Of a stretch of DNA of 64,000 nt, positions 2,068 through 64,000 are shown in pieces (the stretch's first letter is position 1; every line of letters begins with the position of its first letter). The translations under genes were made by a program, and so were the position numbers. The DNA lies in IMG/VR virus record IMGVR_UViG_2574180442_000002, positions 9,823 through 73,822 of that record; one strand, written 5' to 3'. The notes below the pieces were generated by a model, which made no database searches, was not told where the DNA came from, and worked only from the letters and a program-made list of their open reading frames with translations. This DNA is from a virus.

Positions 2068-2125
2068 AAATCGAAAGCGCCCCTGACGGGGCGCTTGGGG
2101 CGGCCCGCTCGGCGGGCCTGCCCCT
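2068..2125 (-). other. Two GC-rich hairpins downstream of the CLec-like gene (terminator or DGR-type cruciform)
   Basis: On - strand: ggggc[a]ggcccgc-cga-gcgggccgcccc then aagcgcccc-gtca-ggggcgctt. Confidence 0.6.
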
Positions 2126-2150
2126 GACATGACACAGGTCACAAAAGGCA

Positions 2151-3128
2151 CTACACCTTTGCGAGACGGCCGCCGATGTTGGAGCTCGAGACCCCCGCGT
2201 CGCTGCCGACGTTGAGGTGGAAGAGGCCGGCGTCCCGGCCGTTGCCCCAAAGGCCGCCGTGGCAGGCTACGGCGTTCGGGTAGCTCCAGAAGTAGTCGCC
2301 GAAGGCCGATTCGTCGCGGTCGTCGCGCGTCGTGGCGGGCAGGAACACCGCGCCCAGGTCGAAACCGGCGTCGCGGTCGGTGGCGCGGCGGCGGAACCAG
2401 CCATCGCCCGGCGCCTCGACATCAGTTTCCACGTAGGTCTGGCTGCCGTCGGTGGCCCAGATGCGGTATTCGATGTCGGCATTGGTCTGCAAGCCATCGA
2501 CCATCTGCCAGACGTTGCCCCACAGTCCGGTGATGCCGCGCCATGTGGCTTGAACGACCAGTTCATCATCGACAGGCTGGACGCCGCCGCCATCGACGTG
2601 CCCGCGCCCGATTGCGGCCTGGGCGTCGGGCGTACCCATTTCGATCAGGGCCAGCATTTGGATGGCCGCGAGCTGGTAGATGCTCCAGAGCATCCAGCCC
2701 TCGCCGCACGCGGCGGCGCGCGCCTGCATGGTCGGGAAGTTGATGGAGGTCAACGGCTTCAGGCCGGGCTGGCTGCCCAGCTTGTCGTCGCCGTCCGGCG
2801 TGCCCTGGAATTTCCCGACGTGGAACTGGGCCAGCTCGGCGCCGTGGTGACGGAACGCGGGGTGCAGCTCGAAGCCGGGCGCGGGTTCGGGGCTGACCCA
2901 CAGCGCCTTCTTACCCGCGTGCTCGCCGGCGGGCACGGCGCCGGAGCGGTAGTAGAAGGCCGGCACGCGCACCAGGTGCTGGCCGTCGATCACCTCGTCG
3001 GCGATGCCGGCGTAGGTCGGGTGGGCGTCGAAGTCGCCGGCGGCCGGCGCGATGCTATTGCCCTCGGCGTCGATGCGCTGCCAGTTGCCCAGCGCCTTGC
3101 CGATGATGATGCCGATGATGTTGCTCAT
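2151..3128 (-). CDS. C-type-lectin fold (FGE-sulfatase/Mtd-like) protein with DGR-style variable C-terminus
   Basis: Motifs LHPAF, VGKFQG, GITGLWGNVWQMVDG and terminal HGGLWGNGRDAGLFHLNVGSDAGVSSSNIGGRLAKV parallel the DGR target at 60914-62014 (VHPAF, IGAYQG, GISDLCGNIWEW, RGGSW...IGGRPAFV). Confidence 0.85.
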   Translation of the reverse strand: MSNIIGIIIGKALGNWQRIDAEGNSIAPAAGDFDAHPTYAGIADEVIDGQHLVRVPAFYYRSGAVPAGEHAGKKALWVSPEPAPGFELHPAFRHHGAELAQFHVGKFQGTPDGDDKLGSQPGLKPLTSINFPTMQARAAACGEGWMLWSIYQLAAIQMLALIEMGTPDAQAAIGRGHVDGGGVQPVDDELVVQATWRGITGLWGNVWQMVDGLQTNADIEYRIWATDGSQTYVETDVEAPGDGWFRRRATDRDAGFDLGAVFLPATTRDDRDESAFGDYFWSYPNAVACHGGLWGNGRDAGLFHLNVGSDAGVSSSNIGGRLAKV

Positions 3129-3898: not shown

Positions 3899-3943
3899 AT
3901 TACACCAAATGGTGAAGTTACTGTCAACACCATTTGGTGTAAT
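3899..3943 (-). promoter_or_regulatory. Leftward early promoter PL overlapped by two repressor operators (OL)
   Basis: - strand TTGACA(3927-3922)-N17-TGTAAT(3904-3899). Operators tacacc-aaat-ggtgaa (3901-3916) and aacacc-attt-ggtgta (3926-3941); 16-bp inverted repeat 3899-3914/3928-3943. Confidence 0.85.
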
Positions 3944-3950
3944 TCGGGCA

Positions 3951-3979
3951 AAATAAAAGCCCGGCGACATGCCGGGCTT
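3951..3979 (-). terminator. Rho-independent terminator ending the cI/accessory operon
   Basis: - strand aagcccggc-atgtc-gccgggctt followed by ttattttg. Confidence 0.8.
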
Positions 3980-6851: not shown

Positions 6852-6931
6852 ATTACAGCAGCTTGTAACCATTTGGTGAATTCCCTAAGCGGTGTTTGGT
6901 GTTGAGATTCATACACCGTTTGGTGTATGCT
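6852..6931. promoter_or_regulatory. OR region: three operators, PR (TTGAGA-N18-TATGCT) and PRM
   Basis: gtaacc-attt-ggtgaa (6865-6880), half-site gttt-ggtgtt (6894-6903), perfect catacacc-gttt-ggtgtatg (6910-6929); right halves spaced 23-24 bp; same core as OL. Confidence 0.85.
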
Positions 6932-59603: not shown

Positions 59604-60521
59604 ATGGCATTGAAAAAGTACCCGATTACCAAAATTCCCAACAACGAGCCTGATGCGGTTCCGTCGCTGTGGAACACCCGCTATGAAGAAATCGACGAGA
59701 ACTTCGACGATTTGGACAAGCGCCTGGCCGCCCGCGAAAGCGAGCTGAATGCAGCTCGCGGTGGGAAGCCCAACCTTGGCGCCCGAATGGACGAGTTGGC
59801 GTCCAGCGTCTCCGGCCAATCGGAAGAGGCCGACAACAACAAGATCGCGGTTCTGCTGTTCGCCCTGCAACAGGCGGCGCTGGCAAATTCTGGCGTCCAG
59901 GCCCTGAAGGACGTGGCACAGCAGCAGGGCGAGTTCGTCATTACGAATCGCGGCCTGATTCGCGGCTGCCAGGCCAGCAAGTCCACCACGGCCACGCGCA
60001 ACCTGAACTTCACTGAAGGTGCTTGCTTTGCCCAGGGGCGTGTTTTTGCCGTGTCCGGCACTGAGAACGCAGCAAGCGTGCCGAGCAACCCGTCCAGCGC
60101 ATCCGTCACCGTCCGCGCGTATCTGTTCCAGAACGGCAATGGTGTGTGGCGGCCGGCTATCACCCCGGTTGGCACCGATGTGCCTGAAGGCGCGATCACG
60201 CTTTACCAACTGACGATTCCCGCCGGCAATACCGACGCAACCGACCCGAATCTGGGCAATGTCACGCTGACCAGCGTGCGCCGCTTCGAGCCGCAATTCC
60301 CGATTCTCCTGGACAGCCCGCCGACCCAATCTGTGGCTATCAACACGGTGAACGCTTCCGACTACCAGCTCACGTTCGATGTCGTGTCCGCCCAGGGGGC
60401 GCCATGTGGCGCTGATGCCGTAGTGGCGCGCAGCCGCGCAACCAACGGCTTTTCTGTGGAGCTGCACAGCGCCGCCGACAACGTGCGCCTGCGCTGGAAG
60501 CTCTCTCGACTGAGCAACTAA
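59604..60521 (+). CDS. Tail fibre-like protein
   Basis: N-terminal coiled coil (LAARESELNAARGGKPNLGARMD); beta-rich C-terminal part; position. Confidence 0.6.
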   Translation: MALKKYPITKIPNNEPDAVPSLWNTRYEEIDENFDDLDKRLAARESELNAARGGKPNLGARMDELASSVSGQSEEADNNKIAVLLFALQQAALANSGVQALKDVAQQQGEFVITNRGLIRGCQASKSTTATRNLNFTEGACFAQGRVFAVSGTENAASVPSNPSSASVTVRAYLFQNGNGVWRPAITPVGTDVPEGAITLYQLTIPAGNTDATDPNLGNVTLTSVRRFEPQFPILLDSPPTQSVAINTVNASDYQLTFDVVSAQGAPCGADAVVARSRATNGFSVELHSAADNVRLRWKLSRLSN

Positions 60522-60545: not shown

Positions 60546-60881
60546 ATGGCACGCATTGAAACCAAGCAGCCCGGCCAGGCTGTAGCCGATTTCTCGGTGA
60601 ACGGCCACCTCATTACCGTTTCCGGCGTCCAGGTGGACTGCCGGGCCATGCAGCAGGACAGCGAACGCATCGTCGAGGTGCGTCAGTCAGGCGGCAGCGC
60701 GCATGTCGGAGGCGACGGCGCATACCTGGCGCACATCACCATTCCCGCCAAGGTCTATATCGAAGTCCCGTCCGAAGAGGGCGAAGAGGGCGAGGAAGGT
60801 GAAGGCGGCGGTGTCGAGCGTGTTGCGCAAGAACTCGACCCGAACGCCGTTGCCATCACCCTTTGGCCCCTGGCGAACTGA
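60546..60881 (+). CDS. Small tail-fibre-associated protein
   Basis: Between fibre and DGR target; acidic loop. Confidence 0.6.
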   Translation: MARIETKQPGQAVADFSVNGHLITVSGVQVDCRAMQQDSERIVEVRQSGGSAHVGGDGAYLAHITIPAKVYIEVPSEEGEEGEEGEGGGVERVAQELDPNAVAITLWPLAN

Positions 60882-60913
60882 TCGCCCAACGATTACTGAT
60901 TGGAGAAACCAAC

Positions 60914-62014
60914 ATGCCCAGCATTTATGTGAAAGACGAGCTGCGCGCGGCCGTCGAAGCCGCCAGCGGCGGAAAGCAAACCGTGCTCTACACGTCCGGT
61001 GGACAGCCGAGCATCATGAACGTCGTGCCGAAGTTCATGATGGAAGACATTGATGTCAGTCTTGGCACCGGCGTCCATCCCGCATTCATCGTCGGCGGCG
61101 TCGAGAAAAGCGAGCTGTTCATTGGCGCGTATCAGGGAATCATCAAGAACGGCGAGCTGGTTTCTCTGGCCGGTGTTGACCCCAGCGCCTCCGCCAATCA
61201 CGACACATTCGTGAGTGCAGCGCGGGCAGCCGGGCCTGGCTTTCACCTCACCACGAACGCGGAGTACGCTGCGCTGGCCCTGTGGTGTCAGAAAAACGGT
61301 TTCCAGCCGCGCGGCAACAGCGACTACGGTCGCTCCCACGAAGCCACGCACGAAACGGCCCGCCGTCAGGATGGCGGCACCCCCGGAGCCAGCAGCGGCA
61401 CCGCCCGCACCTTGACCGGCTCTGGCCCTGCGTCGTGGCGTCACGACAATACGCCGAATGGTATTTCCGACCTGTGCGGGAATATTTGGGAATGGTCGCC
61501 TGGAATGCGCCTGATGGATGGCGAAATTCAAGTCATCCCCAACAACGACGCCGCACTGCACACCACGGACTTGGCGCGCACTTCCAGTGCCTGGCGCGCT
61601 ATCCGTGCAAGCGACGGCGCCCTGGTGGCTCCCGGCACCGCTGGCACCCTCAAGTACGACGCCTCAAGCCCGACCGGCGGCAACATCGTCCTTTCCGACG
61701 CCATTACCAACCGTCTTGGCGAGCTGGACGACGACGCGAACTCCGGTAACTCGGCGTCTGTTGCGCTGAAGAGCATGACGGCCAAGGCTGGCCTGAATGT
61801 TCCTGCTATCGCCAAGGCGTTGGGCCTGTATCCGGCTGTGCCTGAAACGATGAAAAGTGAAAGCGCCTATATGCGCAACTATGGCGAACGTCTTCCGTTT
61901 CGTGGCGGCAGCTGGCACAGCGGCGCGAATGCCCGGGTGTTCGCCGTGAACTTGGGCAGCTCGCGGGGCTACTCCAGCACGCGCATCGGCGGTCGGCCCG
62001 CTTTTGTGATCTGA
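60914..62014 (+). CDS. DGR target: Mtd-like C-type-lectin receptor-binding protein
   Basis: Start MPSIYVKD at 60914; GVHPAF, ISDLCGNIWEW, RGGSW...IGGRPAF; VR at the 3' end. Confidence 0.9.
   Translation: MPSIYVKDELRAAVEAASGGKQTVLYTSGGQPSIMNVVPKFMMEDIDVSLGTGVHPAFIVGGVEKSELFIGAYQGIIKNGELVSLAGVDPSASANHDTFVSAARAAGPGFHLTTNAEYAALALWCQKNGFQPRGNSDYGRSHEATHETARRQDGGTPGASSGTARTLTGSGPASWRHDNTPNGISDLCGNIWEWSPGMRLMDGEIQVIPNNDAALHTTDLARTSSAWRAIRASDGALVAPGTAGTLKYDASSPTGGNIVLSDAITNRLGELDDDANSGNSASVALKSMTAKAGLNVPAIAKALGLYPAVPETMKSESAYMRNYGERLPFRGGSWHSGANARVFAVNLGSSRGYSSTRIGGRPAFVI
61888..62002 (+). repeat. DGR variable repeat (VR)
   Basis: 115 bp, 12 mismatches to TR 62775-62889; 11 at TR adenines, 1 at a G. 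Ends in GC-rich IMH cggcggtcggcccgct. Confidence 0.97.
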
Positions 62015-62382: not shown

Positions 62383-62769
62383 GTGTCGGAGCTGGTTGAG
62401 CAGGTTCAGAAAAACGATCTGTTAATTCGCCAAAAATGCGAAGCGATGATCGCTTATGGATATACGGTGCTGCGCCACTTCCCGAAGGTCGAGCGCCATG
62501 TGCTGGGCGCGGAGATTCGCACGACGATGTGGGCGCTATTGCGGCTGATCGTGGTGTGCAATAAGCGCTATCACAAGAAAACGACCCTTCAGGAACTGGA
62601 CGCAGAGCTTGACCTGCTTCGGTCACAAGTCAGAACCGCAAAGAACCTTGGCTATCTGGACTTCGGCAAGTACGAAAACTGGGCCAAGCTGAACGACGAA
62701 ATAGGCCGCATGGTAGGCGGCTGGGTCAAATCCATCGCCGGAGACGGCGGCGGTGGGGGTGTGCGTTGA
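62383..62769 (+). CDS. avd: DGR accessory variability determinant (four-helix bundle)
   Basis: FPKVERHVLGAEIR...LQELDAELDLLR...EIGRMVGGW motif; directly before TR. Confidence 0.92.
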   Translation: MSELVEQVQKNDLLIRQKCEAMIAYGYTVLRHFPKVERHVLGAEIRTTMWALLRLIVVCNKRYHKKTTLQELDAELDLLRSQVRTAKNLGYLDFGKYENWAKLNDEIGRMVGGWVKSIAGDGGGGGVR

Positions 62770-62774
62770 AAACG

Positions 62775-62889
62775 ACGTCTTCCGTATCGTGGCGGCAACT
62801 GGAACAACGGCGCGAATGCCGGGGTGTTCGCCGTGAACTTGAACAACTCGCGGGGCAACTCCAACACGAACATCGGCGGTCGGCCCGCT
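62775..62889 (+). ncRNA. DGR template repeat (TR)
   Basis: Invariant AAC-rich copy of VR: 24 adenines, 10 AAY codons in the VR frame; IMH* diverges after cggcccgct. Confidence 0.97.
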
Positions 62890-63067
62890 CTTGGGGAAAG
62901 TCAGAAGCGCCAGGCTCACGGGCCTGGTGACAGTACACCCCTCAAAAGGACGCATATCCCCCGGCAACAGGAATCCTGAAGCCGAAAGATTAAACAGGCG
63001 GCCCTAGACAGTAGCTTTGTAAGCGACCCCTAGCAGCCGCCGCCCTTCGGGGCTGGTTTGTGGTGTT

Positions 63068-64000
63068 ATGGCTAAGACGTACAGCAACATTTATCCAGAG
63101 ATTTACAGCTTCGAGGCTCTTCACGCGGCCTATATCCGCGCCAGGCGCGGCAAGCGTGACAGAAGGGAAGTTCAGCAATTCGAGCTTGACCTTGAGGGCA
63201 ACCTGATTCAGCTCCAGAACGAGCTGATCTGGGGCATGTATAAGACGGGACGGTATCGAACCTTCGAGGTGTATGAGCCGAAGCAAAGGACGGTGGCCGC
63301 GCTGCCGTTCCGCGACAGAGTGGTTCAGCATGCGATGGTGGCGGCCATTGAGCCGATCTGGGAGCGGCGGTTCATCCATGACAGCTTTGCGTGTCGGCCC
63401 GGCAAGGGGACGCATCGCGGCGCCGACCGCGCCCAGCAGATGCTGCGCAAGGTGAAGCGGGAGCACGGCCATGTCTACGTGCTGAAAGCTGACATCGCCA
63501 AATACTTTTACTCCATCGACCACGGCATCCTGAAACGCTTGCTGCGCCGTCGCATCCGGTGCAAGCGGACGCTGACGCTACTGGATAGCATCATCGACTC
63601 GACGGCGGTGCCGGGCGACCCGAATCCGGTTGGGCTGCCCATTGGGAATCTGACATCGCAGCTTTTTGCAAACCTGTATCTGCATGAGCTGGATGAGTTC
63701 GTGAAGCACGGACTGTGCGAAAAATACTACGTGCGCTACATGGACGATTTCATGATTGCCAGCCACGACAAGGAGCACTTGCACCGGCTCCGGGCGAAGA
63801 TCGAGGCATTTCTGTGGGATACCTTGCGCCTCAAGACGAATGCGAAAACCCAGGTGTTCCCGGTTGGCGAGCGCCGTGGCCGCGCACTGGATTTTCTTGG
63901 CTACCGGATATGGACGACACACCGGCGTATCAGAAAAAGCTCAATTTCTCGCATGTCGCGGACGCTCAAGTATCTACGCAAGCGATATGCAGCGGGCAAG
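63068..64000 (+). CDS. DGR reverse transcriptase (3' end outside window)
   Basis: Manual translation from ATG 63068: FRDRVVQHA, SFACRPGKGTH, KADIAKYFYSIDH, GLPIGNLTSQLFAN, YVRYMDD, DFLGY. Missing from the ORF track because no stop codon is in the window. Confidence 0.97.
   Translation, partial: MAKTYSNIYPEIYSFEALHAAYIRARRGKRDRREVQQFELDLEGNLIQLQNELIWGMYKTGRYRTFEVYEPKQRTVAALPFRDRVVQHAMVAAIEPIWERRFIHDSFACRPGKGTHRGADRAQQMLRKVKREHGHVYVLKADIAKYFYSIDHGILKRLLRRRIRCKRTLTLLDSIIDSTAVPGDPNPVGLPIGNLTSQLFANLYLHELDEFVKHGLCEKYYVRYMDDFMIASHDKEHLHRLRAKIEAFLWDTLRLKTNAKTQVFPVGERRGRALDFLGYRIWTTHRRIRKSSISRMSRTLKYLRKRYAAGK

Follow-up and report, generated by a model that had tools for sequence, protein, structure and literature searches.

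A remote early-operon target of a diversity-generating retroelement, probably put out of step with its template by a module swap between related phages

The window analyzed here is a stretch of 64,000 nt (bases 9823–73822) of the 78.9-kb provirus record IMGVR_UViG_2574180442_000002. Our subject is an open reading frame (ORF) near its left end, target gene 2, whose product ends in a variable repeat (VR2) of the type rewritten by diversity-generating retroelements (DGRs). Searching the whole provirus record for templates, we found that VR2 has a counterpart, the template repeat TR2, in a complete cassette (avd2–TR2–RT2) just beyond the right end of the window. Target gene 2 is, in all likelihood, a genuine non-adjacent DGR target that is out of step with TR2, probably because related phages exchanged modules. 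Differences confined to template adenines are observed in the family of the gene; the present pair of repeats does not show them. Positions are those of the window unless marked "genome", features past its end are also given in window-equivalent positions (Table 1), and individual loci are cited by our L and G numbers.

Results

A second cassette past the window

The best match of VR2 in the provirus lies within TR2 (genome 74342–74443; 80% identity over 102 nt, E = 5.6e-22), whereas the template of the resident cassette, TR1, reaches 63%. A sensitive local search found only four members of the repeat family in the provirus, VR1, TR1, VR2 and TR2, and VR2 is the only match of TR2. TR2 is flanked by a gene for an Avd and one for a DGR-type reverse transcriptase (RT), RT2, which has an intact YMDD box (YVRYMDDF) and an LTSQL motif, both aligning to RT1. 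The cassette has no adjacent target and follows directly on RT1, so that the end of the fibre operon reads mtd1–avd1–TR1–RT1–avd2–TR2–RT2, two complete cassettes in tandem. Since the two RTs are 43% identical and the two Avd proteins likewise 43%, the cassettes are no recent duplicates. The GTG start of avd2 overlaps the stop codon of RT1 (GTGA; window-equivalent 64129–64132, genome 73951–73954, L002:1110–1113), because of which we propose that the two cassettes are probably co-transcribed and translationally coupled. VR2 and TR2 are 62 kb apart on the integrated map; across the junction of the circular form the distance would be about 13 kb. To judge from codon comparisons with the closest relative, cassette 2 is under purifying selection, with 101 synonymous-only and 67 non-synonymous codon differences in RT2 and 46 and 13, respectively, in avd2.

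A first-pass annotation, which read the window alone and thereby missed the template by 520 bases, had suggested a remote target diversified in trans by a second TR, possibly with the help of RT1 and Avd1. The second TR does exist in the phage; the borrowing falls away, as cassette 2 has an RT and a bAvd of its own. The BLAST comparison that it had proposed for a copy differing only at adenines, made over the provirus record, returns TR2 (80%), with differences that are not confined to adenines. The protein was to be taken as static if the genome held no cognate TR and the homologues were invariant; TR2 is there, and the homologues are hypervariable at template-adenine sites.

Table 1. Positions of the features discussed in the text
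Feature	Position	Strand	Basis or remark
Second hairpin, 9-bp stem, 4-nt loop, then TTTCGATTT	2075–2096	−	predicted fold
Candidate DGR target-recognition hairpin, GC-rich, 33 nt past VR2	2097–2124	−	fold and covariation
Target gene 2, stand-alone DGR variable protein, 325 aa	2151–3128	−	ORF call; third-position GC content (GC3) 0.90
VR2, variable repeat, 102 nt, in the region of the last 34 codons of target gene 2	2158–2259	−	match to TR2
Two palindromic 15-nt operator-like sites, candidate leftward operator and promoter (OL/PL)	3902–3916 and 3927–3941	.	about 800 nt upstream of target gene 2
Terminator-like site closing the leftward repressor operon	3957–3979	−	consensus scan; 9-bp stem, 7 GC pairs, T-rich tail
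Target gene 1, Mtd-like, 383 aa, holds VR1	60863–62014	+	phrog_2889, E 4e-146
VR1	61888–62006		repeat comparison with TR1
avd1	62383–62769	+	PF22296 bAvd, E 2.4e-32
TR1, template of VR1, not of VR2	62775–62893	+	repeat comparison
RT1, runs past the window end	63068–64000	+	
avd2, 117 aa	64129–64482 (window-equivalent); genome 73951–74304		PF22296 bAvd, E 8e-23
TR2, 104 nt, AAY-rich	64520–64623 (window-equivalent); genome 74342–74445		520 nt past the right end of the window
RT2, 360 aa	64783–65865 (window-equivalent); genome 74605–75687		RVT_1, E 2.6e-21

Diversification in related genomes

In five isolate genomes of relatives we found the TR, which gave seven TR/VR pairs for comparison (Table 2). 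All of them differ almost exclusively at template adenines, with 9–15 mismatches at adenine sites and 0–2 elsewhere, and the IMG/VR pairs L068/L006 and L069/L008 likewise differ nearly only there. Alleles of the target give the same picture: the near-identical L006 and L007 have 1 difference in the 876 nt outside the VR and 13 in the 102 nt within it, 12 of the 13 being at adenine sites, and further allele pairs are similar. Differences between near-identical alleles are 13-fold more frequent inside the VR than outside. Among the closest alleles (90% amino acid identity) the flanks and the downstream hairpins are identical and the VR is scrambled, and in the protein alignment the variable columns are set between invariant flanks. 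Because the pairs differ almost only at adenines and the alleles vary mostly in the VR, the family of target gene 2 is, on this comparative evidence, actively diversified. Variation across related prophages, one of the checks that had been recommended, thus falls at the template-adenine sites. The records of the closest alleles, G001 and G002, contain no TR; these prophages are split over two IMG/VR records, and their TRs are in L068 and L069.

Table 2. Mismatches between TR and VR in related isolate genomes
Genome	Target	Adenine-site mismatches	Other mismatches
Pigmentiphaga	short	10	1
Burkholderia	short	15	1
Pseudothauera	short	13	0
Gulbenkiania	short, remote	11	2
Gulbenkiania	long, adjacent	11	1
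Pseudomonas UMAB-08	short	14	0
Pseudomonas UMAB-08	long	9	0

The single non-adenine mismatch of the Pigmentiphaga and Burkholderia pairs is the same T-to-G difference, found at the VR codon after GAG when L148 and L149 are compared with the TRs L179 and L178 (TTC in the TR, GTC in the VR). At this mid-VR codon TR2 has ATC and VR2 has GTC. The pattern suggests that the TR itself recently changed from A to T in the Pigmentiphaga/Burkholderia lineage and that VRs can keep older states.

Mismatches between TR2 and VR2

The 102-nt core contains 20 mismatches between TR2 and VR2; 9 are at TR2 adenines (Fisher p = 0.008 for the adenine excess) and 11 are not. Because of these 11, VR2 in its present form cannot have been written from TR2 as it now stands, and consequently the pair has seen no fixed homing event since it was formed. 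Of the 11, five are synonymous, at third codon positions, and look like drift. At non-adenine sites VR2 differs from the VRs of its relatives at 5–8 of 78 positions, and the rest of the gene at 6.5–7%; from TR2 it differs at 11 of 80 (14%), which is near the divergence of the genome arm that carries the cassettes.

The two arms are not equally close to the Pseudothauera prophage. Identity to the Pseudothauera prophage is 94% over the exonuclease, RecT and target 2 region (genome 7617–12970) and 93–96% across 35 kb of structural genes, but 84%, 70% and 79% in successive blocks over the fibre genes and both DGRs (genome 65550–75635). As the target arm is 94% identical and the fibre/DGR arm only 70–84%, we propose that a recombinational module swap between related phages probably desynchronised TR2 and VR2; it would have exchanged the fibre/DGR arm for a more divergent allele while the target arm stayed in place.

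Disagreement between the arms is also the sole hint at an assembly artefact, in which the left arm of one prophage strain was joined to the right arm of another. We regard this as very improbable: identity to the Pseudothauera prophage shifts in several blocks (94, 75–91, 79–81, 93–96, 84, 70 and 79%), a pattern that mosaic phages typically show and one chimeric join does not, and the record carries non-phage genes at its flanks and is classified as a provirus. VR2 was also considered as a recombinant of two parents, one like TR2 and one like L069, and this was rejected, the sites resembling each parent being interleaved along the VR.

Several observations weigh against linking VR2 to TR2 in the manner proposed. 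The restriction of differences to adenines, defining for DGR targets, is lacking in the pair. Two of the non-adenine mismatches fall within the GC-rich stretch of about 17 nt at the 3′ boundary, which is perfect in seven of the seven other pairs, and homing into VR2 may be impaired as a result. Against the TR of the closest relative, L069, VR2 shows 9 adenine and 6 other mismatches and is no clean product of that template either, and an IMG/VR scan for a TR or VR with the exact non-adenine scaffold of VR2 (N at adenine sites) found none. The template searches covered the provirus and IMG/VR, a further TR in the host chromosome is possible, and the time of expression considered below is read solely from operator and terminator patterns. 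Since the TR of L069 gives no clean match and IMG/VR holds no such scaffold, the lost, closer template of which VR2 would carry the imprint is one that we infer and do not observe.

Non-canonical mutagenesis by a low-fidelity RT2, in a pair that is active and in step, might also leave changes at sites other than adenines; non-A-to-N differences occur in 23% of surveyed DGRs, with up to 11 in one target (Wu et al. 2018, PMC5758913). We nevertheless find this explanation hard to credit: the five synonymous third-position changes are what neutral drift predicts, relatives whose RTs are 83–84% identical show 0–1 non-adenine differences, VR2 has diverged from related VRs at non-adenine sites just as much as the gene at large, and the drop in identity of the fibre/DGR arm accounts for the number of mismatches.

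It is possible, though not the outcome we would expect, that VR2 is a frozen target: a diverged, swapped-in TR2 would no longer home into it, the product would be a static lectin-fold protein, and cassette 2 would be heading to decay. The mismatches in the boundary stretch and the lack of any fixed homing event speak for this. On the other side, avd2 and RT2 are intact and under strong purifying selection, TR2 retains its AAY codons and is 89% identical to the TR of L069 (about 79% for the flanks), and the last 11 nt before the boundary as well as the hairpin downstream are intact. Homing in the phage BPP-1 requires only short homologies, and two mismatches may or may not matter. We see about an even chance that TR2 can re-home into VR2, as cassette 2 looks intact. 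A frozen variant, the second option of the first-pass annotation, is a partly apt description of this copy, in which no homing has been fixed, but not of the family, which elsewhere appears actively diversified.

Repeat boundary and downstream hairpins

In every pair the identity of TR and VR stops at ...CTCGCAAA, after which the TR has C and the VR has G; this C/G mismatch lies just past the core and is not among the 20 counted above. VR2 ends with the same ...CTCGCAAA, and only two codons and the stop of target gene 2 remain. VR2 thus has both a GC-rich 3′ boundary, resembling a site for the initiation of mutagenic homing (IMH), and a GC-rich inverted repeat downstream. GC hairpins after the gene had been noticed before, and we find two of them past the stop codon. 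The hairpin nearer to the gene has a stem of 5 + 7 bp with a one-base bulge and the 3-nt loop CGA, and occurs at an equal position (~33 nt) after the VRs of both short and long targets at 14 diverse loci. Over these loci its inner 7-bp helix is 93.9% paired, with compensatory changes in three pairs, and its covariation score was reached by 0 of 500 shuffles. The farther hairpin, with the following TTTCGATTT, resembles an intrinsic terminator; it is restricted to loci with the same early-operon context (this genome, L006, L008, L148, L149 and L010).

By analogy with BPP-1, TR2 RNA would be copied by RT2 and Avd2 into a cDNA mutated at adenines, and this cDNA would take the place of VR2, with the GC-rich 3′ homology and the conserved downstream hairpin as guides.

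The resident cassette

Cassette 1 rewrites the Mtd-like gene next to it: VR1 and TR1 differ at 13 sites, 11 of them TR adenines. For TR1 and VR2, our recount over 33 codons (2160–2258) reproduces the 37 mismatches in 99 positions counted earlier and turns the approximate 25 at non-adenine positions into exactly 25, with 12 at TR1 adenines. With 63% identity and this many non-adenine mismatches, TR1 is not the current template of VR2, as had been concluded. The description of the codons opposite AAY holds as well, nine of ten being NNC (GGC, AAC, GAC, AAC, GGC, AGC, GTC, AGC and AAC) and the tenth CTT.

The AAY codon positions of TR1 and VR2 coincide, which would also be seen if VR2 were diversified by RT1 and Avd1 of cassette 1, or by a TR in the host chromosome. 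We give this next to no weight: besides the mismatches, the hairpin on the TR1 side (4-nt loop GGTA) and its 3′ boundary sequence are unlike those of VR2, and there is a dedicated cassette whose TR is far better.

Target gene 2 and its protein

The GC3 of target gene 2 is the usual value for real genes of this provirus. In a BLASTP comparison its product is 25% identical to the Mtd-like product of target gene 1 (E = 7e-14), in line with its earlier designation as Mtd-like, and the similarity includes the C-terminal GGxW...IGGR scaffold. It also matches phrog_5302, "tail protein" (E = 3e-33), and the profile of its family matches the DGR variable protein TaqVP (PDB 5VF4; E = 4.9e-11). An AlphaFold model computed from a 29-sequence alignment has a mean predicted local distance difference test (pLDDT) score of 65, falling below 50 across the VR from residue 268; Foldseek with this model ranks 5VF4 first (E = 1.8e-7), at a template modeling (TM) score of only about 0.39. 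The VR part's assigned C-type lectin (CLec) fold therefore comes from homology and not from the model. Pfam gave no match above the cutoff for this protein (Expansin_C, E = 0.07, is below it) and nothing for Mtd1 or the fibre proteins. Relatives number 53 in IMG/VR and 29 in isolate genomes or metagenome-assembled genomes (MAGs), with hosts including Pigmentiphaga, Burkholderia, Pseudothauera, Gulbenkiania, Bordetella hinzii and Pseudomonas.

Just upstream of the repeat, target gene 2 encodes Cys (TGC) at 2265–2270 (−), in ...AVACHGG, where 28 of 28 aligned relatives have Tyr (TAC). Opposite the changed base is an adenine of the sequence immediately 5′ of TR2, which matches imperfectly, and for this reason the template may reach past the clean repeat by a few codons in the upstream direction.

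Size classes and the origin of the tandem layout

The relatives form two classes, a long one of about 855 aa encoded next to avd–TR–RT and a short one of about 325 aa that stands alone and remote; the short class corresponds to the last, distal third of the long tail-fibre form. In relatives with a single cassette (Gulbenkiania and Pseudomonas UMAB-08) one TR serves both. Short and long paralogues occur at opposite contig ends in IMG/VR (L009 with L017, L015 with L022, L011 with L035, and L034 with L039), which fits one TR for two targets on circularly permuted or whole-prophage contigs.

The tandem layout is common to this genome, L068–L070 and the Pseudothauera prophage. The first 73 aa of the long target correspond, at 53–58% identity, to the N terminus of a 305-aa fibre protein (59604–60521, +), with nothing matching beyond, and this protein likely marks the recombination joint at which the Mtd-type module entered. 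On the strength of that match we propose that a foreign module (a new fibre C terminus, mtd1, avd1, TR1 and RT1) replaced the old adjacent long target, whose loss would have left avd2–TR2–RT2 with the remote short target alone. Diversification of the short protein seems to be selected in its own right, since cassette 2 is under purifying selection and the pairs are in step in three isolates.

The early leftward operon

Target gene 2 is about the third gene leftward of OL. The two operator-like sites upstream of it belong to a four-copy family (D1, I2 and I9 in our numbering) whose other copies, at 6866–6880 and 6913–6927 in the cI/cro divergent region, form the candidate rightward operator (OR), and the terminator-like site (3979–3957, −) lies just upstream of the candidate OL/PL. 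Downstream of the gene follow a gene in RecT position (phrog_3657), a YqaJ–KTSC exonuclease, RdgC and a 906-aa C5 methylase. The earlier placement in the PL early operon is borne out by the OL-type operators, the upstream terminator and these recombination genes, and the gene is probably expressed early after induction or infection and not with the virion genes. A putative late-promoter box has no copy upstream of target gene 2 on its strand, which is weak evidence. The position of the short gene shifts in distant relatives, yet it is always inside the leftward arm; this conserved position is seen in several genera of betaproteobacteria, in a Pseudomonas isolate and in a MAG of the Porticoccaceae. 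Its product does not look like a receptor-binding virion protein: the gene lies in an operator-controlled leftward operon beside recombination genes, and the ~530-aa N-terminal part of the long paralogues is absent.

The conserved position in a leftward recombination and anti-restriction arm, together with the purifying selection on cassette 2, leads us to consider that the short target might be no part of the virion but a hypervariable protein made early that binds its ligand in the cytoplasm, for instance one that inhibits, in an adaptable way, some host factor that itself varies, such as a protein for defence or exclusion. We rate this as unlikely; if true, the short protein would be valuable enough for a clade to keep a whole dedicated DGR after the loss of the fibre target.

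Genome ends

In the left arm (genome 339–10009, L189), RdgC is identified by PF04381 (E = 3e-109), the 906-aa protein contains a C5 cytosine methylase domain, and the exonuclease is a 723-aa fusion of YqaJ with a C-terminal KTSC domain. At the other end, homology to related prophages ends right after RT2 (~genome 75635). In the sequence beyond (genome 75636–78902, L190:2637–5903) we find a low-GC spacer together with genes for a tyrosine integrase that has an Arm-binding domain (PF13356, PF00589) and for a HEPN protein of the ApeA type (PF18862, PF18739), which looks like the end of the prophage with a defence gene either adjoining it or contained in it. An ARAGORN search of the interval from RT2 to the integrase gave no tRNA.

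Discussion

The case argues that a TR and a remote VR can fall out of step when related phages exchange modules. DGR callers that require adenine-only differences would leave target gene 2 and cassette 2 unlinked, and desynchronisation may explain some of the cases with many non-adenine differences, some apparently orphan targets and some cassettes without a target. A clade of P1-like/lambdoid prophages, with twin cassettes and hosts including Pigmentiphaga, Burkholderia and Pseudothauera, appears to keep a complete and selected DGR solely for a small fibre-tip-like protein of the early operon. This sharpens the question of the role of small second DGR targets in phages and offers cultivable hosts.

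The closest paradigm is the BPP-1 DGR (mtd–avd–TR–brt), with which cassette 2 and its target share a bAvd, a TR between avd and RT, an RT with a YMDD box, AAY-rich template codons opposite a lectin-type VR at the C terminus, a 3′ boundary rich in GC and a GC hairpin downstream of the VR. Unlike in BPP-1, the target is 62 kb away in the early leftward operon and does not close the fibre operon, the hairpin is 33 nt from the VR with a loop of 3 nt, and TR2 and VR2 are not related through adenine changes alone. The protein is also distant from the Mtd type, being only 25% identical to the Mtd-like protein of the same phage, and a search of PDB sequences gave TaqVP and not Mtd.

Non-adjacent targets in prophages were described by Wu et al. 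(2018, PMC5758913), including two phage DGRs whose only target is non-adjacent, about 20 kb away. As in those cases, target and cassette share a prophage without being neighbours, and cassette 2 has no adjacent target. Here, by contrast, the target-less cassette is directly behind a complete and unrelated one (RTs 43% identical), a tandem of which we found no description in the DGR literature compared; and the assignment rule of that survey (A-to-N differences only, with minor exceptions) would not link TR2 and VR2.

Pairs of a large and a small DGR target, of unknown purpose, are found in Faecalibacterium prophages (Lelie and CP11; PMC11792537), and DGRs with multiple VRs in Burkholderia, Ralstonia, Collimonas and Pseudogulbenkiania (Schillinger et al. 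2012, PMC3521204). Gulbenkiania and Pseudomonas UMAB-08 resemble both in that a long fibre-like and a short stand-alone target depend on one TR. The Faecalibacterium pairs belong to DUF6273, whereas the family here is TaqVP-like; moreover, the long partner has here been replaced, we propose, by a foreign cassette and a whole DGR kept for the short protein. TaqVP of Thermus aquaticus (PDB 5VF4; PMC6328139) is the only solved structure matched by the profile, including the C-terminal GGxWxxG...G.R segment; identity is only about 20–22%, and TaqVP is a cellular DGR target and not a gene of a phage early operon. Non-adjacent and small second targets of phage DGRs have thus been published before; what the present case adds is quantitative support for a TR/VR pair desynchronised by a module swap, and a whole DGR maintained for an early-operon protein.

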